Part shown: piece by piece, positions 567 through 15,351 of the stretch
Position numbering within the stretch: the stretch's first letter is position 1
Layout of the letters: every line of letters starts with the position of its first letter
Assembly: GCA_964371145.1 (NCBI GenBank)
Contig: CAYJKO010000002.1
Span: forward strand, 90,899 to 109,453
Direction of reading: 5' to 3'
Length of the DNA: 18,555 nt
DNA from: an uncultured Muribaculaceae bacterium
Lineage (GTDB): Bacteria > Pseudomonadota > Alphaproteobacteria > Rs-D84
Notes under the pieces: model-generated
Seen by the model: the letters and a program-made list of their open reading frames with translations, nothing else
What the model was told of the DNA's origin: nothing
Database searches by the model: none
Position numbers and translations under genes: made by a program

Positions 567-1298
567 TTATTTTTTTGGTTGCCCTATTATTCCGTCTTCT
601 ATTGTTATTATTTTGTCCGCAAATCCGGCCAATTTTATGTCATGAGTCACAAATAGCATCGCCATGCCTCTGTCTCGTACAATTTTAAATAACAAATCAA
701 AAACCATGGACGCATGTTTTGGATCCAAACTTCCCGTTGGTTCGTCCGCCAATAAAACATCTGGATTATTTGCCAAAGCCCGAGCAACCGCAACACGTTG
801 TTGTTCTCCGCCCGACATTTCCCCCGGTAAATGATTTACGCGATGCGCAACATTCGCGGATTTTAATAATTTTTTTGCATGGTTCGATGCGTCCGTATAA
901 GACACACCATTTGCCAACATCGGCAATATTACATTTTCTATTGCTGTGAAATCATTTAATAAATTATGCTTTTGATAAACAAACCCAATTTTTTTACGGC
1001 GCATTTTTGTTCGTGTTAAATCATCCATTTTTTGGGCGGCGTTCCCAGAAATTAATATGCTGCCAGACGTTGGTTTATCCAACAAACCAACACATTGTAA
1101 CAATGTTGATTTCCCGCATCCAGATTGACCAACCAATGCGATTATTTCGCCACGACATAAATCGAATCCGCCCCCACGTAGAATATGCAAAGGCTGACCG
1201 CCTTCGATAAAAGTTTTTTTAATATCGCGAACGCTTAACACTATGTCTTTTGCATTGCCTGTTTTTGTTAAAGATTTTAATATATTAGCCATAGACAT
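567..1298 (-). CDS. lolD: Lipoprotein-releasing system ATP-binding protein LolD (ABC ATPase)
   Basis: Walker A GQSGCGKST, ABC signature MSGGEQQRVAVARAL, Walker B LLADEPTGSLD. It follows a LolC/E permease gene by 8 nt, with SD AAGGAA. Confidence 0.93.
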   Translation of the reverse strand: MSMANILKSLTKTGNAKDIVLSVRDIKKTFIEGGQPLHILRGGGFDLCRGEIIALVGQSGCGKSTLLQCVGLLDKPTSGSILISGNAAQKMDDLTRTKMRRKKIGFVYQKHNLLNDFTAIENVILPMLANGVSYTDASNHAKKLLKSANVAHRVNHLPGEMSGGEQQRVAVARALANNPDVLLADEPTGSLDPKHASMVFDLLFKIVRDRGMAMLFVTHDIKLAGFADKIITIEDGIIGQPKK

Positions 1299-1306
1299 TT
1301 TTCCTT

Positions 1307-2563
1307 TTATTCATTACGCAATACTTCGACCGGGTCTGTGTTCGCCGCTTTCCATGCCGGATACAATGTCGCAAGAAAAGACAATAAAACCGCAATCAAC
1401 GCAATACCCAATACATCAGTTAATATAATTTTAGATGGTAATTCTGACAAATAATATAATTCTGGTGGGAATAAATCTCTCCCTGTTAAGCTTTGTATAA
1501 ATTGGCGAATGTTTTCAATATATGTTGCAATTAATAAACCCAAACCTGTCCCCATTATCGAACCAATTAACCCTATGCTGGTTCCGGTTAAAACAAATAT
1601 TTTCATCATGGATTTACGTGACACGCCAAATGTTCTCAATACTGCGATATCTTTTGATTTGTCAGAAACCAACATAACCAAACTGGACACGATATTGAAA
1701 GCCGCCACAATTATAATTAACATTAATATCAAAAACATAACATTAGATTCCACCTGCAAAGCGCCTACAAAACCACTGTTTAATTCGCGCCAATCGCGAA
1801 CGATAAAGCTTTCTGGTAATAACGTTTTTAAACTGTCCACAACTTCTGTCGTTTCTTCTGGATTTTCTAAAAATAAATCTATGTGCGTTACAGAATTTTC
1901 GATATTCAAATATTTTTGAGCCGTATTCATAGGCATAAATATATAACCAGAATCGTATTCATACATCCCCATAAAAAACAAAGAAGATACCGGATATGAT
2001 TTAATACGAGGCACAGTTCCGAACGCCGTTACAGACGCACCATTGGCAGACACCAAAGATATTTTTTCACCCACCCCCGCTTTTAAATTACGAGCCATAG
2101 ACACACCCATAACCAATTCGCCGTCTTTTATTTGTGTTAATTCTTTACCGAAACTTTTTGCGCCGCTGTGCATTTTAGATTGCAAATCTTCCATCGCAAT
2201 TCCGCGAACCATAGCGCCCGTATTATTTCCATTTGCAGAAACCATAACCTGGCCTTCGGCGATTGGAATAATATCAACAACAGATTTTTGAACTATTTTA
2301 TTTTGATTCATTTTATCGATTAAAAAATCATAATCGGAAATCGCGCCATCTTGATGATATACAACAACGTGTCCATTCATACCGACGATACGTGATAACA
2401 AAGTATCATGAAATCCACCCATAACAGACATTACAACAATCAATGTTGCAACACCCAACATAATACCCAACAAAGACACCCAAGAAACGACCGATATGAA
2501 ACCTTGTTTCTTTTTAGATTTTAAATATCTGAATGCAATTTTTCTTTCTAATTTTGAAAACAT
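1307..2563 (-). CDS. lolC: Lipoprotein-releasing system transmembrane permease, LolC/LolE family (single copy, LolF-like arrangement)
   Basis: N-terminus KIAFRYLKSKKKQGFISVVSWVSLLGIMLGVATLIVVMSVMGGF, a large periplasmic domain, and a C-terminal FtsX-like TM bundle ending YPAWKAANTDPVEVLRNE. Only one permease gene precedes lolD. Confidence 0.92.
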   Translation of the reverse strand: MFSKLERKIAFRYLKSKKKQGFISVVSWVSLLGIMLGVATLIVVMSVMGGFHDTLLSRIVGMNGHVVVYHQDGAISDYDFLIDKMNQNKIVQKSVVDIIPIAEGQVMVSANGNNTGAMVRGIAMEDLQSKMHSGAKSFGKELTQIKDGELVMGVSMARNLKAGVGEKISLVSANGASVTAFGTVPRIKSYPVSSLFFMGMYEYDSGYIFMPMNTAQKYLNIENSVTHIDLFLENPEETTEVVDSLKTLLPESFIVRDWRELNSGFVGALQVESNVMFLILMLIIIVAAFNIVSSLVMLVSDKSKDIAVLRTFGVSRKSMMKIFVLTGTSIGLIGSIMGTGLGLLIATYIENIRQFIQSLTGRDLFPPELYYLSELPSKIILTDVLGIALIAVLLSFLATLYPAWKAANTDPVEVLRNE

Positions 2564-2585: not shown

Positions 2586-3938
2586 TTATTGACCCAAAAA
2601 TTCACGCAATGAATCTCCGGATAAATCTGATACGCTTGAATTTTCAACCGGTTTTTCATCGACGATTGAAATGACTCTTGGGCTCATAAACACAACCAAT
2701 TCTGCAAATGGGCTGATTAAAGTTTCTGGGGTTGTTACAAACGAATGTGTTGGTATACCGATAATTACATAATTATCACCCAAACTGCTTGGGATTGTGA
2801 ACGAAGACAATTCTCCCTCAGACGTTCTTAATACAATTTTGGCATCAATTTTTTTCTTGTCTCCCATATCTCCATAAGTCGCAACCGCACCCACAGTTAA
2901 ATCAGTTTCCAATCTTTCTTCTTTACCGCATTGACCGATGTCAAATCTGGATTGCCATCCATCCGGTAATACAAAAGTTCCTTGGGAAATTAAAACTACA
3001 TTTGCTTGGCGAGATAAAAATTCTTGCAAAGTTTTTGTATTGATTTCCGGACTGGTAACCAGCGCACGACCAACAACACCCGGCACAGACATTTTAATAT
3101 TATTTTCACCGAACGCAGGCAATAAATTCATCCAAATAATTGGATTATCTGTTCGCGGATACACACGATAAACATCCAAATCCCATGCAATCATATAATT
3201 TTTGTCTGCAACATCATTTACGATTTTTGCAACTTCTTTTTCTGTTTGATAATTGCCTTCGAAAATAACGGTTTTATCTTGCCAATCTACCAATAAATTT
3301 CGCATATCTGCACCGTGCATAGCATCCATCAATGCCATAATAATGCTTTCATCATTTGGCATTTTCATTAACCATTTAGAACGATGTTTCAAATGCAATT
3401 CTTGGGCGTCTGCGTCATAGCTGAAATAACTGCGTCCCATTTTTGTGATTAAATCAATAGCATCCGTTAATGATGCAGATTGAATTGAACCGGATATTTT
3501 ATCTGTTAAATTTTCTTCTGCGACAACCGCAATATCTGTTCCCAATAATAATTTATCCAAAACTTGTTTCACTGTTTTTTTAGAAAATTCATAATCCGAT
3601 ACATTAAAGTCCGGCAACGCGTCCCCGACCCCCAAACGAATTATTTCAATTTCTTCTTCTGGTACGACAGACAACACATTTTGATTATCCCAATCAACCG
3701 TACATCTTTTTGGCAATTCGATAGAAAATCTGCGCGCCGTATCGGTTGTCAAAGCCGCTTTTTTTGGAAAGATGGGTACAGAATTTTCATCTACAACCAA
3801 ATTATCGATAACGGTTACCGTATCATACAAAGGCATTTGATTTTGTTGATTTTGCTGATTCACAGCACACCCTGCGAACAAAGAAACAAATCCTGTTATC
3901 GCAATTGTTTTTATCAAATTTAATTTTGATTCTCTCAT
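2586..3938 (-). CDS. Secretin-family-like outer-membrane lipoprotein (N0/STN-like, Secretin_N-like and compact secretin core); divergent, function unassigned
   Basis: Lipobox SLFAG|C24 with Ala at +2 and a Q/N linker. aa 115-185 resemble an N0/STN fold (VKQVLDKLLLGTDIAVVAEENLTDKISGSIQSASLTDAIDLITKMGRSYFSYD). aa 186-260 resemble Secretin_N (VDWQDKTVIFEGNYQTEKEVAKIVNDV...DLDVYRV). aa 311-424 resemble a secretin core (ANVVLISQGTFVLPDGWQSRFDIGQ...DNYVIIGIP...ELVVFMSPRVI). SD AAAGGGA. Confidence 0.6.
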   Translation of the reverse strand: MRESKLNLIKTIAITGFVSLFAGCAVNQQNQQNQMPLYDTVTVIDNLVVDENSVPIFPKKAALTTDTARRFSIELPKRCTVDWDNQNVLSVVPEEEIEIIRLGVGDALPDFNVSDYEFSKKTVKQVLDKLLLGTDIAVVAEENLTDKISGSIQSASLTDAIDLITKMGRSYFSYDADAQELHLKHRSKWLMKMPNDESIIMALMDAMHGADMRNLLVDWQDKTVIFEGNYQTEKEVAKIVNDVADKNYMIAWDLDVYRVYPRTDNPIIWMNLLPAFGENNIKMSVPGVVGRALVTSPEINTKTLQEFLSRQANVVLISQGTFVLPDGWQSRFDIGQCGKEERLETDLTVGAVATYGDMGDKKKIDAKIVLRTSEGELSSFTIPSSLGDNYVIIGIPTHSFVTTPETLISPFAELVVFMSPRVISIVDEKPVENSSVSDLSGDSLREFLGQ

Positions 3939-3956
3939 AAAATCATCCCTTTTATA

Positions 3957-4268
3957 TTATATATTCATAACTTTTTCAAATTCTGCCAAACTCATTTCAT
4001 GCACAGGCTTTTGTGTAGGAGTCGTCAAATTTTTCACATTTTCGAAAACATTTTCCAATTTTTGCAAAACATTTTTCACATCCGCATTATCAGAATTCAA
4101 TCTTTTTCCATATTCAATTATAAATTCCAAAACATCGGCTGCAAAAAAACGCCCCACATAATTTTCCATTGCAATTCCGCCTTTATTTACGGAAACAGCA
4201 GACATAATCGCAGACATTTGGTTGTAAAAATTTATTAAATTATTAAACTTTTCTATATTGTTTGCCAT
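3957..4268 (-). CDS. Hypothetical 103-aa protein with no signal peptide; first gene of the secretin-like/lolCD operon
   Basis: Clean ORF with SD AAAGG. It ends 18 nt upstream of the secretin-like gene. Predicted helical and acidic; no motif recognised. Confidence 0.5.
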   Translation of the reverse strand: MANNIEKFNNLINFYNQMSAIMSAVSVNKGGIAMENYVGRFFAADVLEFIIEYGKRLNSDNADVKNVLQKLENVFENVKNLTTPTQKPVHEMSLAEFEKVMNI

Positions 4269-4315: not shown

Positions 4316-4345
4316 ATTATAAAAACTATTGCCCCACTTTGGCAA
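4316..4345 (-). promoter_or_regulatory. Putative promoter for the 103-aa ORF / secretin-like / lolCD operon
   Basis: Minus strand reads TTGCCA (4345-4340), an 18-nt spacer, then TATAAT (4321-4316). It sits back-to-back with the plus-strand promoter at 4329-4357. Confidence 0.4.
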
Positions 4346-4357
4346 TTAAATTATAAT
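4329..4357 (+). promoter_or_regulatory. Putative promoter giving a leaderless mRNA for the 126-aa lipoprotein gene
   Basis: TTGCCC (4329-4334), a 17-nt spacer, TATAAT (4352-4357), then 7 nt to the ATG at 4365. No SD. Confidence 0.4.
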
Positions 4358-4364
4358 ATAAATT

Positions 4365-4745
4365 ATGAAAATAAAAAACTTTATATTTTTAGCATTTTTG
4401 TCCGCATGTTCTTCATACAACACGGGCAACATAAATGACGCCACAATTTTAAATTGGGAAAACGAATTGGTTACAATGGAACAATTTGTTCGTGACCATA
4501 AAGAATGTTTGGGTGTAACGCGTCCAGATCACGCGCCGCGTTCATCTTTGGCAAAAATGTTATCTCCGAACCAATCTGCTCAAATGCCCGACTGGGGTGG
4601 TTTGTGGGTAACGTTCCAATCAAATGAATATTCAGACGTTGGGCAAAGACCTTTGTTATCTATTCCATCCAACTCTACATCTAAATCCGTTGGCACATAC
4701 AGAAAATGTATGTTCCGTTTGGGATATTTATTACGCGCCAGTTAA
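4365..4745 (+). CDS. Small hypothetical lipoprotein (126 aa)
   Basis: Signal peptide with lipobox MKIKNFIFLAFLSA|C. The mature part carries two further Cys (HKECLGV and YRKCMFRLGY). Confidence 0.6.
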   Translation: MKIKNFIFLAFLSACSSYNTGNINDATILNWENELVTMEQFVRDHKECLGVTRPDHAPRSSLAKMLSPNQSAQMPDWGGLWVTFQSNEYSDVGQRPLLSIPSNSTSKSVGTYRKCMFRLGYLLRAS

Positions 4746-5484: not shown

Positions 5485-7242
5485 ATGAATATTGTAAATT
5501 CTTCTTTTTTATGTCTGGATATAAATTCTGACAATGTTGGTGGTATTGCTCATTACATTCGTGACGGCCGTATTATTAAATCCGTTTTACATATGGCAAA
5601 CGTAGAAAACAATGATGTTACATACGCAATAAAAACTGTTCTGGAAGAATTGGATTCAAAAACCGGAATCAGATTCGACACTGCATATATTACAGGTGAA
5701 TTTGGTCAATCTTTTTTTAACGTAAATCTTGTAACTTGTCGTTGGGACAAAAACCATTTGGTTAATAACGCGGATATGTTGGCCGAGATAAAAAAAATAG
5801 AAAACCACCCAGAATTGTGTTTGTTCCATATAATACCGTCCGGTTATACGGATGGCTTGTCCGGCATAGAAAGCACACCTGTTGGAAAAAAATGCAAAAT
5901 ATTAAAATCCAGATTTAATGTAATCAGATATCAAAAAAATGATATAGAAAACATTATATCTATGTTAAAAAAAACATACATACATGCAAAAAGTTTCCAA
6001 GACAAAGCATTTTTAATCAGCACAAAATACAGCCGTAAAAATGAAAATTCCTTGCAAATAGAAATGGGCGGGGATTTCACAACTGTTTCAATTTGGCGTT
6101 CTGGTTTTCCAGTTGTTTTCAAAAAAATACCGGCGGGACAAAATTCTATTGTTAAAAAAATTCAATCTGAATTAAATATTCCATATAACGAAGCGCGTGA
6201 TCTAAAAAATTCCAGCGCGGATATATTTACAAATTCCAGCGACAGTTTTAACATTATAAATCTGGCATATAAATACACAAAAGACGATATTAATTCTATT
6301 ATCATTCAAGAAATTTGGGATATATTAGAAACGATAAAAACTGTCGTTAATCCATTTACAGAAAAATATAGATTAAACAACATATACATTTATGGCACAG
6401 GATCAAATATTAAAAATTTGGATAAATATTTCGCAGAAGAATTTGACGCGCCCGCTACAATTTTAGAAGCGGACGAAGCGTTGCAATGTTTTTCAAAAAG
6501 ATTATTTTCAAATCCTGATAAAAAAGAAAAAACCAGCATATGGTTCGAAAACAAAATAACAGATAAAATTGCAAATTTATTTACAAAAAAAGAAACTTTT
6601 TTTAATCCGATATTCCCAAGCACGATGGCATTTGATGTAAACAACGAATGGACATATTCTCAATTTAAATCGGCCGACATATCTTGTGTTCATATTGATA
6701 TAACTGACGGTTTTTTTGTTAATACTATTTATGGAAATATTGATGATATAAAAACAATAAAAAAGAATTCAAATTTAAAAACTCAAGTCCACTTAATGAC
6801 TGAAACACCGGTCGTTTTGGGAAAACAAGCGATTAATGCAGGCGCAGATACCGTCATTTTATCAGCCGAAGCAATCGGTTCAAAAAATGCCATTTCTGAA
6901 TTAAAAAAGATTGGCGGACGTGTTGGATTGGCAATAAACCCGAACACATCGATACATGTATTAACAGACGTTATAAAACAATTGGACGATGTTTTAATTT
7001 TGGCGGTTGAACCCGGTATGGGCGGACAAACATTTAAACCGGACGTTTTATCCAAAGTAAAATCTTTGGTCGCCACCCGAGATAAATATAAATTGAATTT
7101 TAAAATAACGGTTGACGGTGGAATTAATGATACGGTCGCAAAATTATGTTGGGCGGCAGGCGCAGATTATTTGGTATCGGGTGCACATTTAAAATCTGCT
7201 CCAGATTTTCCATTGGCTGTTAATAATTTGTTAAAAAAATAA
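5485..7242 (+). CDS. ftsA-rpe: Fusion ORF: divergent FtsA-like actin-fold cell-division protein (aa 1-~373) joined in frame to ribulose-phosphate 3-epimerase Rpe (aa ~374-585)
   Basis: FtsA-like segments: FLCLDINSDNVGGIA, HIIPSGYTDGLSGIESTPVGK, IEMGGDFTTVSIWRSGFPVVFKKIPAGQNSIV, IYIYGTGSNIKNLDKYFAEEF, and an amphipathic helix IWFENKITDKIANLFTKK. Rpe segments: IFPSTMAFD, HIDITDG, VHLM, GLAINPNT, LILAVEPGMGGQTF, ITVDGGIN, GADYLVSG. No stop and no ATG lie between the two parts. Confidence 0.8.
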   Translation: MNIVNSSFLCLDINSDNVGGIAHYIRDGRIIKSVLHMANVENNDVTYAIKTVLEELDSKTGIRFDTAYITGEFGQSFFNVNLVTCRWDKNHLVNNADMLAEIKKIENHPELCLFHIIPSGYTDGLSGIESTPVGKKCKILKSRFNVIRYQKNDIENIISMLKKTYIHAKSFQDKAFLISTKYSRKNENSLQIEMGGDFTTVSIWRSGFPVVFKKIPAGQNSIVKKIQSELNIPYNEARDLKNSSADIFTNSSDSFNIINLAYKYTKDDINSIIIQEIWDILETIKTVVNPFTEKYRLNNIYIYGTGSNIKNLDKYFAEEFDAPATILEADEALQCFSKRLFSNPDKKEKTSIWFENKITDKIANLFTKKETFFNPIFPSTMAFDVNNEWTYSQFKSADISCVHIDITDGFFVNTIYGNIDDIKTIKKNSNLKTQVHLMTETPVVLGKQAINAGADTVILSAEAIGSKNAISELKKIGGRVGLAINPNTSIHVLTDVIKQLDDVLILAVEPGMGGQTFKPDVLSKVKSLVATRDKYKLNFKITVDGGINDTVAKLCWAAGADYLVSGAHLKSAPDFPLAVNNLLKK

Positions 7243-9692: not shown

Positions 9693-12158
9693 ATGAAACA
9701 TAAAATATTATGGTCGTTTGTCGGTTTATTCACAGTCGCAGGACTGGCAACAGTTATCATTCCCCCATTTGTTAATATAAACGAATTAAAACAGGACATA
9801 GAAAAAGCTATACAAAAACAAACGGGTGATGCTACGAAAATTTTGGGCGACATAAATTTTTCTTTAATCGGTGGCGCACAAATTGTTGCTAACAACGTAC
9901 AATTAGAAAACGGTTCTATTGAACGAATTAAATTTAATATTCCTTTTTCTAAATTATTCGATCTATCCGCTATTTCTTTAACAGACGACGTTACCATTTA
10001 CGGGGCGAATTTAAAAATCACAAATTTAATACCTCCTGAAACAAACAACGTTTTAAACATAAAAAATTCAACATTTGATTTTCGTGGGCAAAAATTTGAA
10101 TTAACAGATACAGAATTAAATGACAATATTTTATCCGGCACAATTAAAACAAATAACGAAGATTATTATATGGTCTTTGACGGGTCAAAATTTAATATCA
10201 AAAACGATGATTATAATATGATATTAAATGGAATTTTAAATCCGGACGGATCAGCCACCGGTTCTCTATTTTTAAACACAAATAAAATAAATGATTTCTT
10301 CAAATTTGAAAATCCTAGAATCAGAAATGATATTTCTGTCAGCGCTAAATTTTATTGGGATGGCGCGCACGGCATTCAATATACAGACATTATTGGATCA
10401 GACATAACCGGTGATGTAAAAACATACAACAATAATCGCCGTGATATAAACTTAATCGCTGAAAACAAAGTCGTTGATTTATCATTCTTAATGACAAAGC
10501 CTGAATTAATATTCACATCCAACATAAACATAGAATTATTCGGTCAAATAAAATTTGGTAAAGATATTTTTGAATATGTAAAAATAAACACTGTTGGCGA
10601 AAACGATAAAATTATCATAAAAGAAATAATTGCGGACGATATTAAAATATCAGGTGGGATTATTACAAAAAACGAATTTGAAAATTTATCTGCAAGCTTT
10701 TTATTAAACAATGAACAAACGTTTTGCCTGTTGTCTGGTAATAAAACAAATTGGACATGCAATGATTTTAAACAAGGCGACATATCAGGCACAATTATAA
10801 AAGCAGATAATTCATTTAACATAAAAATTAAATCGAACGGTAAAATGATAGAAAACACCGGCTTTTATAAACAATTTTTGCAAATTGCAAATAACGGGGA
10901 AATATATTTTGATTTTTCTGACGCCAGCGGAACTGTGGATATAATAGACGGTCGCCCGTACCCTATATATAATTTTATTAAACATAAAAATTTAAATTGG
11001 CTGGATTTAGATTTATATTTTTTATCGGACAAAATGAAGACTGAAATCGGAGATTTGAAATCTGATAAAGATACAATTTATTTCACTGCGAAAGCCAGTT
11101 CTTGGAAATTTAAATTTTCACCGAAAAACAACGAATTTAAAATATCGGGATTATCTATTAAACAATTGTTACCAACAGATATAAATTTATCAGCGTTTAA
11201 CGACAAATCATTTATAATTTCAGGCAAAGTTTATGGCGCAAATATTTATGATTTAAACATTCAAATCGGCGACCATATTTTCAAAGGGAATGCGGTAAAA
11301 AACAACATACAATTATCTGGTGACGTTTTGAACATTGATAATCTTTTATCGAAAAATTACATTGAAAATTATGATGAATTTCAATTTTTAAACCAAGCCA
11401 GTTTTTTAATACCTTTTGATTTTGGTTTAAACATCAGTTTGTCTGCAAATAAATTAATTTATAACGGGGAAACGTTTTCTAATTTTTTATATTCATTAAA
11501 TGACAATGAACAATCTTTTTCAATTGATGATGAATATGCGGGCGATTTATTGACAACAATAACAGACAACAAAACCGATTATGATATATTAATAGAATTA
11601 AATAATTTCGTAACGCGTAACAAATTATTGAACGACCAATCCCCTATTAACATTGAAAACACAACCATCACAGGCCAAGCAAAGTTGAATACATCGGGCA
11701 AAATTGCAGCGGATATTTGGTATAATTTAAAAGGTAACATGGACATTGTTTTTAACGGCGGCAATTTAATCGGATTGGGTATCGATAAATTTTATCAAGA
11801 ATACGAATATATCAATCGTATGAACGCGGAATACGCCATTGCAACAGCATTGGAAACAGGCACAACAAAATTAAAATATTTACGTTTAATCGGAGAATAC
11901 AATAACGGTGATTTTATATCTACAAAACCATTTGAATTATCTATGAACAACAGTCAAGCGAATGGTATTTTAAAAATAATTGATGGTGTTATAGATTTAG
12001 ATTTATCAATTATATTACGTGGGATATCTATGACAGAATCACCGATAAATTTAAACATAGAAAATAACAAAAATCGCAAATATTCTTTATCTGAAATAAT
12101 GGTGATTTTTGACCCGTATTATTTCAAAGATTTTGTTGCAAAGCATAATAAATTTTAG
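9693..12158 (+). CDS. AsmA-family protein (N-terminally anchored envelope/outer-membrane biogenesis protein)
   Basis: N-terminal TM followed by the typical AsmA start (IIPPFVNINELKQDIEKAIQKQTGDATKILGDINFSLIGGAQIVANNVQLENG). Long beta-rich N/K/I-rich body. AsmA_2-like C-terminus (GNMDIVFNGGNLIGLGIDKF...ANGILKIIDGVIDLDLSI). Confidence 0.8.
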   Translation: MKHKILWSFVGLFTVAGLATVIIPPFVNINELKQDIEKAIQKQTGDATKILGDINFSLIGGAQIVANNVQLENGSIERIKFNIPFSKLFDLSAISLTDDVTIYGANLKITNLIPPETNNVLNIKNSTFDFRGQKFELTDTELNDNILSGTIKTNNEDYYMVFDGSKFNIKNDDYNMILNGILNPDGSATGSLFLNTNKINDFFKFENPRIRNDISVSAKFYWDGAHGIQYTDIIGSDITGDVKTYNNNRRDINLIAENKVVDLSFLMTKPELIFTSNINIELFGQIKFGKDIFEYVKINTVGENDKIIIKEIIADDIKISGGIITKNEFENLSASFLLNNEQTFCLLSGNKTNWTCNDFKQGDISGTIIKADNSFNIKIKSNGKMIENTGFYKQFLQIANNGEIYFDFSDASGTVDIIDGRPYPIYNFIKHKNLNWLDLDLYFLSDKMKTEIGDLKSDKDTIYFTAKASSWKFKFSPKNNEFKISGLSIKQLLPTDINLSAFNDKSFIISGKVYGANIYDLNIQIGDHIFKGNAVKNNIQLSGDVLNIDNLLSKNYIENYDEFQFLNQASFLIPFDFGLNISLSANKLIYNGETFSNFLYSLNDNEQSFSIDDEYAGDLLTTITDNKTDYDILIELNNFVTRNKLLNDQSPINIENTTITGQAKLNTSGKIAADIWYNLKGNMDIVFNGGNLIGLGIDKFYQEYEYINRMNAEYAIATALETGTTKLKYLRLIGEYNNGDFISTKPFELSMNNSQANGILKIIDGVIDLDLSIILRGISMTESPINLNIENNKNRKYSLSEIMVIFDPYYFKDFVAKHNKF

Positions 12159-14632: not shown

Positions 14633-14968
14633 TTATTGAACTGAAATTACATCTACTTCTATTTCCGGATTTCCCCACCAAGAATCATCAACTGTTCCAT
14701 ATATAATAACGATGTCATCTGGTGTTATGTTTTGTGGCGGCCAAACATCATCTTCTATTTCAACAACTATATCCCCTGTGCTGTCGGAAAAATTATATTC
14801 TTCGTCATCTATGACATCTTCTATCACTCCACGAACAGCAACATATTCTCCGTCGTTCATATTCCAAACCTCCGACACAGTAATCGGTGTTTCTGACATC
14901 ATCACATATCCCGCATTCGCAGAACCTATCATTGTTATTAATCCCAAAATAAACATAAATTTTTTCAT
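14633..14968 (-). CDS. Periplasmic OB-fold protein, YgiW/YdeI (BOF) family
   Basis: Signal peptide ending SANA|G. Family-typical core TVSEVWNMNDGEYVAVRGVIEDVIDDEEYNFSDSTGDIVVEIEDDVWPPQNITPDDIVIIYGTVDDSWWGNPEIEVDVISV. SD AAGGAG. Confidence 0.8.
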   Translation of the reverse strand: MKKFMFILGLITMIGSANAGYVMMSETPITVSEVWNMNDGEYVAVRGVIEDVIDDEEYNFSDSTGDIVVEIEDDVWPPQNITPDDIVIIYGTVDDSWWGNPEIEVDVISVQ

Positions 14969-14988: not shown

Positions 14989-15351
14989 TTACATTGCTTG
15001 AATCGAATACACATCTACAACGGACCCGTCCATAGTGCCGTATATCATAACCATATCATCCGGCATAGATTGCATCGGCCAAACGGTTTCGTCAATTTCA
15101 ACAATTATATTACCGGTACTGTCGGTAAAAACGTATCTGTCTTCTGCAACCATATCTTTAACTGTTCCGTACAAAATTACATTATTGCCAGAACCTATTG
15201 TCATTACTTCATCAACCATCATAACGGTATTGCCGGCAGATGATTTATTTTTCATATCGTGATTATGATGCATACTGTTTGTATGTCCCCCCGCATTTGC
15301 AGCCATAATTGATAAACCGAATACGCTGGTCAAAGTTAATATTTTTTTCAT
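14989..15351 (-). CDS. Periplasmic OB-fold protein, YgiW/YdeI (BOF) family paralogue with His-rich N-terminal segment
   Basis: Signal peptide ending AANA|G, then GHTNSMHHNHDMK. Core is paralogous to the downstream gene (DRYVFTDSTGNIIVEIDETVWPMQSMPDDMVMIYGTMD). Confidence 0.75.
   Translation of the reverse strand: MKKILTLTSVFGLSIMAANAGGHTNSMHHNHDMKNKSSAGNTVMMVDEVMTIGSGNNVILYGTVKDMVAEDRYVFTDSTGNIIVEIDETVWPMQSMPDDMVMIYGTMDGSVVDVYSIQAM

Follow-up and report, generated by a model that had tools for sequence, protein, structure and literature searches.

Here, we analyze a stretch of 18,555 nucleotides (nt) from an uncultured bacterium that is named as Muribaculaceae and placed by the GTDB in the alphaproteobacterial lineage Rs-D84 (assembly GCA_964371145.1, contig CAYJKO010000002.1, forward-strand positions 90,899 to 109,453). 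We refer to this whole stretch as the window and number positions from its first letter. The gene in question encodes a 450-amino acid (aa) secretin-like lipoprotein and lies between a small open reading frame (ORF) and the ATP-binding cassette (ABC) transporter genes lolC and lolD. The locus comprises the following genes:

2586..3938, minus strand: 450-aa ORF, the secretin-like lipoprotein (ORF list)
3957..4268, minus strand: 103-aa ORF, free of signal peptide and transmembrane (TM) segments (ORF list); corresponds to the C-terminal domain of partner Y, described below
1307..2563, minus strand: LolC/E-type lipoprotein-releasing ABC permease, 418 aa (TIGR02212, 421.7 bits; Pfam MacB_PCD and FtsX)
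567..1298, minus strand: LolD-like ABC ATPase, 243 aa (top NCBIfam match TIGR02211, E = 8e-74)
4365..4745, plus strand: putative lipoprotein, 126 aa, lipobox LSAC, divergently oriented (ORF list)

In the ORF list, 18 nt separate the 103-aa ORF from the 450-aa ORF. The lolC gene starts 22 nt further downstream and lolD another 8 nt on, and we read a Shine-Dalgarno–like AAGG(G) close upstream of each operon gene. A preliminary description, made from the letters and ORF translations of the same DNA, had reported these ORFs, the 18- and 22-nt gaps, and the lolC and lolD neighbors, all of which are where it placed them. The LolC/E protein exceeds the curated TIGR02212 cut-off (362 bits) and is therefore an equivalog-level match, as are its counterparts at two related loci, L082 and L083. 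The LolD protein scores 247.8 bits against TIGR02211, below the curated cut-off of 307.75, and is identified by best match only. Profile scans of the window proteins detected no pilus, type II secretion system (T2SS), type III secretion system (T3SS), or phage genes across the whole window. The preliminary description had remarked on this lack, and it extends to ±8 kb around the gene in 81 relatives. A prophage or mobile-element origin of the 450-aa gene was considered and rejected: it has no PHROG match and no relative in viral contigs, and its flanks are housekeeping genes.

Secretin homology and gate loss

Five segments can be distinguished in the 450-aa protein, all encoded on the minus strand:

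3867..3938: signal peptide and lipobox, aa 1-24, LFAG/C24 with Ala at +2 (sequence)
3681..3833: extremely conserved N-terminal segment, aa 36-86, ending in invariant C79 (alignments)
3387..3680: N0/STN-like domain, aa ~87-184 (sub-threshold STN match, hhalign, Foldseek, model secondary structure)
3156..3380: N3-like beta-alpha-beta-beta-alpha-beta ring-building domain, aa ~187-261 (hhalign, model)
2658..3155: shortened secretin core, aa ~262-427, ending in ELVVFMSPRVI (hhalign, anchor distances, BfpB domain map)

The protein begins with MRESKLNLIKTIAITGFVSLFAG and continues as C24-A25-VNQQNQQNQ, which provides the lipobox and a Q/N-rich tether, both as given in the preliminary description. These are followed, in order, by the conserved N-terminal segment, N0, one N3, the short core, and a short C-terminal helix. 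Residues 51 to 79 are nearly all invariant among 20 sequences. A lipobox pattern is matched by 101 of 120 close relatives and by 50 of 56 members of the next clade (both of these belonging to the lolCD-linked clades), as well as by 34 of 101 members of a distant clade; this pattern is conservative and misses some true lipoboxes. The distant clade, in which 67 of 101 proteins have no match to the pattern, includes members with signal peptides of the signal peptidase I type.

The preliminary description had read the protein as a secretin, and the checks of this reading diverge. The curated Pfam Secretin model (PF00263) has no match at E ≤ 1 in the window protein, 20 family members, or 10 distant members. 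The STN model scores 13.7 bits in the window protein, which is sub-threshold, and is likewise sub-threshold in 19 of the 20 members (best E = 0.0015). Neither the 450-aa nor the 103-aa protein has a significant match in Pfam, NCBIfam, or PHROG (a Pfam match to DUF3734, a patatin family, at E = 0.035 was judged to be noise), and searches of PDB sequences with the single protein and with the family profiles A1 and A6 returned no match. In contrast, the profile-profile comparison and the predicted fold confirm it. We searched 1.84 billion representatives, clustered at 50% identity, with a family profile and retrieved 147 clusters, 92 of them at E ≤ 1e-10. The weak tail of this search (E = 1e-12 to 1e-4) consists of Pfam-positive secretins of 450 to 850 aa, many with STN and some with a C-terminal TcpQ domain.

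We aligned the 75-sequence family alignment (A6) with an alignment of 27 of these Pfam-positive bridging secretins (A7). The two match with an hhalign probability of 99.9% (E = 1.7e-34) over 337 aligned columns, which cover residues 86 to 427, i.e., from N0 to the final ELV..PR.I motif. The ELVVFMSPRVI sequence, which the preliminary description had singled out as a hallmark, aligns with the secretin C-terminal strand, and all 75 family members share its E413. The A7 secretins have BfpB as their top PDB match (E = 2.9e-33), and their top-scoring models are those of MshL (TIGR02519) and PilN (TIGR02520) of type IVb pili, below cut-off. Their consensus shows a lipobox, most of them carry STN, and one is encoded in a secretin-ATPase-platform cluster, type IVb pilus–like, on a conjugative plasmid.

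Structure prediction agrees with this assignment. An AlphaFold2 monomer model from the diverse 75-sequence alignment reached a mean predicted local distance difference test (pLDDT) score of 89.3 and a predicted template modeling score of 0.78, superseding a run with a shallow alignment (20 sequences, ~75% identity; pLDDT 33). In a Foldseek search of the PDB with this model, the top 22 matches are all secretins (probability 0.97-1.00). BfpB (PDB 9u5s) is the best at 1.8e-9, followed by InvG, PilQ, and GspD and including barrel-only entries. The crystal structures of the N-domains (N0-N1) of EscC, GspD, and XcpQ are matched as well. The three-module reading of the preliminary description (N0/STN, Secretin_N, core) thus appears correct, with an N0/STN-like first module and the middle one now specified as N3. 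We conclude that the 450-aa protein is a highly diverged, miniaturized homologue within the secretin superfamily and that its closest bona fide relatives are the lipoprotein secretins of type IVb pili (BfpB/PilN-like).

The core is shortened in a characteristic way. We compared the distances between conserved anchor residues in the window family (75 sequences) and in true secretins (27 sequences):

S (ISxG) to G (FxVG): window family 16, true secretins 16
G (FxVG) to G (IxGI): window family 55 (53-60), true secretins 94 (93-111)
G (IxGI) to E (ELVV): window family 14, true secretins 33
Y to S (outer barrel/lip): window family 60, true secretins 70

The equal spacing of 16 residues from S to G in both sets indicates that the anchors are valid. 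All 75 family members are approximately 39 residues short in the segment that holds the two gates, and the hhalign alignment with secretins places three deletions in the core. In the published map of BfpB, gate 1 spans residues 406-430, gate 2 residues 461-479, and the inner barrel residues 393-405, 431-460, and 480-492 (PMC12114550). Projected onto this map, the first deletion, between window residues ~340 and 341, takes the gate 1 hairpin. The second, between F380 and T381, takes gate 2 together with a portion of the last inner-barrel strand. The deletions leave the four strands of the inner barrel and those of the outer barrel in place; the modeled core strands are 329-333, 348-357, 362-372, 375-385, 389-396, and 413-426. 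Judged from these alignments, both gate hairpins are lost across the family.

Every member of the family shares two cysteines, one (C79) closing the conserved N-terminal segment and the other (C337) located at the base of the missing gate 1. Neither is conserved at the corresponding position in the bona fide secretin set. A C79-C337 disulfide probably links the N-terminal segment with the stump of gate 1.

Such a reduced core could also belong to a degenerate secretin remnant that no longer forms a channel and instead makes up a periplasmic, lipid-anchored scaffold or ring of structural or envelope function. The core is ~57 residues shorter than in true secretins, with 14 rather than 33 residues ahead of the last strand, and the gene adjoins genes for cell division and the envelope (ftsQ, ftsA, and the AsmA-like gene). 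However, the inner-barrel, outer-barrel, and C-terminal strands are all retained and modeled at pLDDT >90, and the entire core is under very strong purifying selection. We therefore regard a non-channel remnant as rather improbable.

Family distribution, partner genes, and lolCD linkage

The protein has >1,200 close relatives, and all that are named are “hypothetical proteins” from uncultured gut Alphaproteobacteria. When one genome per species was scanned, a relative was detected in 321 genomes, among which the best 80 have 71 to 79% identity. These 80 are labeled almost without exception as Candidatus Enterousia, uncultured Alphaproteobacteria, or “Rickettsiales” metagenome-assembled genomes. 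They come from human, ruminant, horse, and chicken gut, and among them is a closed chromosome of 958,618 bp. Our locus counts for the Enterousia clade rest on these best 80 of 321 genomes, all Enterousia, while the more distant contexts were drawn from contigs encoding relatives and from a metagenome scan. Genomes of the clade measure about 0.75-1.0 Mb. This agrees with a survey of Enterousia (order Rs-D84), which reports genomes of <1 Mb that lack most biosynthesis, flagella, and standard transporters and a probable dependence on partner cells (PMC12306168). Because only 147 clusters were found among the 1.84 billion representatives, the family is small and confined to one lineage.

The proteins of this locus differ in how well they are conserved. 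Across 81 Enterousia-clade loci, identity to the window is 71-79% for the secretin-like protein, 72-82% for LolC, 70-77% for LolD, 51-64% for the 103-aa ORF, and 33-41% for FtsQ. The secretin-like protein, being level with LolC and LolD, is thus conserved like an essential gene.

A distant relative occurs in a cultured alphaproteobacterium. Plasmid NZ_CP031358.1 of Erythrobacter aureus YH-07 (locus L141, 11707-12840) encodes a 377-aa protein, WP_115418396.1, which hhalign matches to the family with a probability of 98% (E = 2e-13) across N0-N3 and into the first part of the core. Its gene is preceded by that of a 1304-aa hypothetical protein. WP_115418396.1 offers a possible experimental handle on the family.

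The most constant neighbor of the secretin-like gene is a gene directly upstream, here called Y, present in nearly all contexts with room for it. Y proteins have 278 to 694 aa and no signal peptide or TM segment; their N-terminal domain is helical and is joined through an acidic linker to a conserved domain at the C-terminus. The 103-aa ORF, which the preliminary description had taken for an unknown partner, is homologous to the C-terminal domain of Y only (blastp against residues 311-369 of the Y protein L083_410, E = 1.7e-6). When 74 homologues of the 103-aa ORF are aligned with Y proteins, the hhalign probability is 97.2% (E = 3.6e-11). By sequence, the 103-aa ORF is a remnant of Y, cut down to its C-terminal domain in Enterousia, rather than a novel protein standing by itself. 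Most non-Enterousia loci also have a gene X, which shares a domain of ~110 aa with Y. Most non-Enterousia relatives thereby carry a module in the order HTH regulator, X, Y, secretin, in which the helix-turn-helix (HTH) protein has 305 to 341 aa and two HTH_3 domains. Distant clades add a further gene, Z, after the secretin-like gene. Its product is bitopic: the N-terminus is rich in P and Q, there is one TM segment, and the C-terminal domain is conserved. None of X, Z, and the HTH gene was found within ±8 kb at the Enterousia loci.

Every sufficiently long locus among the 81 in the Enterousia clade has the order 103-aa ORF, secretin-like gene, lolC, lolD. Some Enterousia carry an insertion, either of ~0.7 kb in the lolC-lolD gap or of 0.5-1 kb in the gap that separates the secretin-like gene from lolC (L020, L033, L039, L051, L059, L063, L064; L011, L053, L055); the operon thus tolerates small insertions. 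Outside Enterousia, lolC lies 13 to 68 nt downstream in 11 of 57 contexts, which belong to the P0123-like and P0125 clades. The tight array with lolC and lolD seen in the preliminary description is therefore conserved across the Enterousia clade and two sister clades. It is not a property of the family: lolCD linkage is missing in the other 46 of the 57 non-Enterousia contexts, including all more distant clades and L090, which is close to the linked L083. Z is found downstream in 42 contexts outside Enterousia, and never together with lolCD.

This pattern bears on the proposal, raised in the preliminary description, that the protein is a component of the Lol pathway, in which a ring would form the outer-membrane end, as a substitute for LolB or as a trans-envelope partner docking on LolCD. 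The proposal draws on the tight operon with an equivalog-level lolC and with lolD (81 of 81 Enterousia and 11 sister-clade loci), on the overlapping stop and start codons in L082 and L084, on the occupation by lolCD of the genomic slot of Z, with which it is mutually exclusive, and on conservation equal to that of LolC and LolD. Against this, homologues are mostly unlinked to lolCD, an outcome that the preliminary description itself had named as refuting, and many distant members are apparently not lipoproteins, as judged by the conservative lipobox pattern. Moreover, the fold is that of a secretin and not the half-barrel of LolA and LolB, no LolB match was obtained, and the absence of LolB from Alphaproteobacteria already has an explanation in a bifunctional LolA (PMC9963962). 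A Lol-pathway component is thus not supported, and we consider it quite unlikely. A more speculative idea, to which we give very little credence, is that in Enterousia and its sister clades the ring swapped an ancestral inner-membrane partner, Z, for LolCD, yielding a trans-envelope conduit that would bring lipoproteins to the outer membrane, or across it, without LolB and perhaps without LolA, or that it is a permanently open pore that takes up lipids and metabolites from partner cells, the organism being unable to make these itself.

In three loci, the module directly follows arrays of two to three paralogous polytopic membrane proteins (L087, 1776-6440; L088, 46-6354; L091, 1263-6778). The array proteins have 413 to 851 aa and 6 to 11 predicted TM segments and are reminiscent of the duplicated VirB6 genes of Rickettsiales. 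The HTH-X-Y-secretin-Z module might accordingly serve as an accessory of a Rickettsiales-like (rvh-type) type IV secretion system (T4SS), with the secretin-like protein as an unusual outer-membrane element. Four of eight array proteins have weak TrbL/VirB6 matches (E = 0.001-0.01), and VirB11-like ATPases (E ~1e-44, sub–cut-off) and a 2409-aa TrbI-domain protein are encoded nearby. However, none of the T4SS matches reaches its curated cut-off, the arrays adjoin the module in those three loci only, and no T4SS-like gene lies near the secretin-like gene in Enterousia. To our knowledge, no T4SS uses a protein with a secretin core. We consider the T4SS reading unlikely.

A different possibility is that the protein is the displaced, conventional secretin of a type IV pilus, Tad system, or T2SS that is encoded elsewhere in the genome. 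Its nearest true relatives are, after all, type IVb pilus secretins, and some relatives with larger genomes have a prepilin peptidase gene within 10 kb. This reading is difficult to reconcile with the family-wide absence of both gate loops, with the constant neighbors X, Y, and Z, which are not pilus proteins by any profile, and with the lack of pilus genes within ±8 kb at the 81 Enterousia-clade loci. The Rs-D84/Enterousia survey, furthermore, found type IV pili only in another lineage, and no flagella (PMC12306168). A displaced secretin is, in our view, very unlikely.

Regulatory region and other genes of the window

The intergenic region between the operon and the divergent 126-aa lipoprotein gene contains two promoter-like sites that share a palindrome:

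4316..4345, minus strand: promoter-like TTGCCA-18-TATAAT, 11 of 12 consensus positions
4329-4345: palindrome TTGCC-N7-GGCAA, whose half-site is the TTGCCA −35 hexamer
4329..4357, plus strand: divergent promoter-like site ahead of the 126-aa lipoprotein gene, 10 of 12 consensus positions, with its −35 hexamer from the palindrome

TATAAT boxes thus flank the palindrome on either strand (4316-4357), and the minus-strand site is the TTGCCA-18-TATAAT promoter of the preliminary description, which we recover at 4345..4316. In this A+T-rich region, the scan alone is not significant (18 promoter-like sites versus 18.3 in shuffles). Nevertheless, in 50 of 74 loci of the Enterousia clade the small ORF has a palindrome of the form TTGCC-N5-9-GGCAA upstream, and 47 of the 74 have a promoter-like site with at least 10 of 12 consensus positions, TATAAT being present in nearly all. 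This conservation of the palindrome across species makes a real bidirectional promoter and operator plausible. The TTGCC-N7-GGCAA region looks like a bidirectional promoter plus operator that is common to the operon and the 126-aa gene, and the palindrome may be a shared operator for some regulator.

The 126-aa lipoprotein has no family match. It occupies the same position in 80 of 81 Enterousia-clade loci, where it is 63 to 78% identical. It may be co-regulated with the operon and could be a further component.

The remaining window genes comprise ftsQ, an ftsA-rpe fusion, tsaE, uvrB, an AsmA-like gene, aspS, two BOF genes, a methyltransferase gene, ogt, an HhH-GPD glycosylase gene, and four tRNA genes. 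In the fusion (5485-7242, plus strand; 585 aa), the N-terminal part resembles FtsA (Pfam FtsA, E = 4e-7; weak MreB) and is joined to an entire ribulose-phosphate 3-epimerase domain (E = 1e-38). This pairing of cell division with the pentose phosphate pathway is unusual, and an equivalent 592-aa fusion is present in a related genome (L001, 6577-8355). The 821-aa protein encoded at 9693-12158 (plus strand) has a faint N-terminal AsmA match (E = 7e-4) and a syntenic homologue of 823 aa in L001. Possibly, it is a divergent lipid-transport protein of the AsmA/TamB type, encoded by an organism in which lipid biosynthesis is reported to be missing. Two tandem secreted BOF paralogues (YgiW-like OB-fold; 14633-14968 and 14989-15351, minus strand) follow, the second with an N-terminal His/Met-rich stretch, HTNSMHHNHDM. 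At the opposite end, positions 1-360 hold a tandem repeat with a 172-bp unit (2.1 copies, 96% identity) that reaches the 3′ end of tRNA-Tyr (342-427), beside tRNA-Gly (434-508). The repeat might represent an attachment site that was duplicated, or a scar left by recombination.

Interpretation and comparison with known systems

We favor the reading that the 450-aa protein is an outer-membrane lipoprotein, a gate-less and diverged secretin, that belongs to a lineage-specific envelope module, and we assign this a probability of roughly 0.6. After lipidation, LolCD would extract the protein, and its lipid would hold it in the outer membrane, as for self-piloting liposecretins. It would then oligomerize into a ring or pore that lacks the usual periplasmic gate. 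The protein may serve as the outer-membrane element of an envelope module that is uncharacterized and specific to this lineage. The adjacency to lolCD is probably a clade-specific operon arrangement, which would co-express an abundant, indispensable lipoprotein with its extractor; adjacency is no demonstration that the protein works in the Lol pathway.

Several observations weigh against this reading. The curated Secretin hidden Markov model and the PDB sequences give no significant match, and the partners X, Y, and Z have no match in Pfam, PHROG, or the PDB. Global TM-scores of the model to solved secretins are low (0.15-0.27), so the fold evidence is local and domain-wise. Low values are expected, on our account, when a multi-domain monomer model is compared with subunits taken out of rings. 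The mapping of the gates runs through two alignments (A6 to A7, and A7 to BfpB), and the gate loss itself might mean that channel formation has been abandoned altogether.

What defines a secretin is a gated, double-walled barrel, along with membership in a pilus, secretion, or phage-export machine. The window family departs from both rules: it has no gates, and in Enterousia no such machine is encoded nearby. The gene is nevertheless kept under selection at the level of LolC and LolD in genomes of ~0.9 Mb that are stripped of most biosynthesis and standard transporters. Thus, the 450-aa protein is probably central to the building or use of the outer membrane in these abundant, uncultured, partner-dependent gut alphaproteobacteria. 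The family is invisible to present annotation, as neither Pfam nor NCBIfam has a model for it and its members are always called “hypothetical.” A conserved gate-less secretin in a 0.9-Mb genome would surprise a specialist on secretins, while the comparative data weaken the link to Lol. An open pore, or a coupling to LolCD, would, if true, put the secretin fold to a new use. On the conservative reading, too, the superfamily gains a new subfamily with a defined set of partners (HTH, X, Y, and Z).

Among known systems, LolB and bifunctional LolA (PMC9963962) invite comparison, since the window protein is outer-membrane associated and is encoded beside lolCD in a lineage expected to lack LolB. Their fold is unrelated, however; the window protein has no LolA or LolB match in Pfam or NCBIfam, and its family has no family-wide lol linkage. 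The filamentous-phage secretin pIV (PDB 7ofh; PMC8563730) is similarly minimal, with an N0-N3-secretin layout and a comparable length. It has both gates, where leaky mutations cluster (PMC8563730), and the window family has neither a PHROG match nor a relative in viral contigs.

The R64 PilN- and MshL-type secretins (TIGR02520 and TIGR02519), which belong to the type IVb pili of conjugative elements, provide the models nearest to the bridging secretins. The window protein itself does not match these models, and its gene neighborhood differs from theirs. HxcQ-type liposecretins pilot themselves through their lipid anchor. The window lipobox, with a residue other than Asp at +2, and the lack of an S-domain match suggest a comparable Lol-dependent, pilotin-free targeting to the outer membrane. 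HxcQ differs in having the full length and the gates of a T2SS secretin and in being encoded within a T2SS operon.

The closest likeness is to BfpB of the bundle-forming type IVb pilus of enteropathogenic Escherichia coli, which is likewise a lipoprotein, with N0 (N0-like in the window protein), a single N3, and a core, and has no S-domain or pilotin (PDB 9u5s; PMC12114550). The two proteins have no direct sequence-level match, the window protein has no pilus genes nearby, and C79 and C337 occur only in the window family. The BfpB core comprises ~240 aa with both gates, compared with ~165 aa and neither hairpin in the window protein. In the bfp operon, a small partner gene, bfpG, presumably lies immediately upstream of bfpB.

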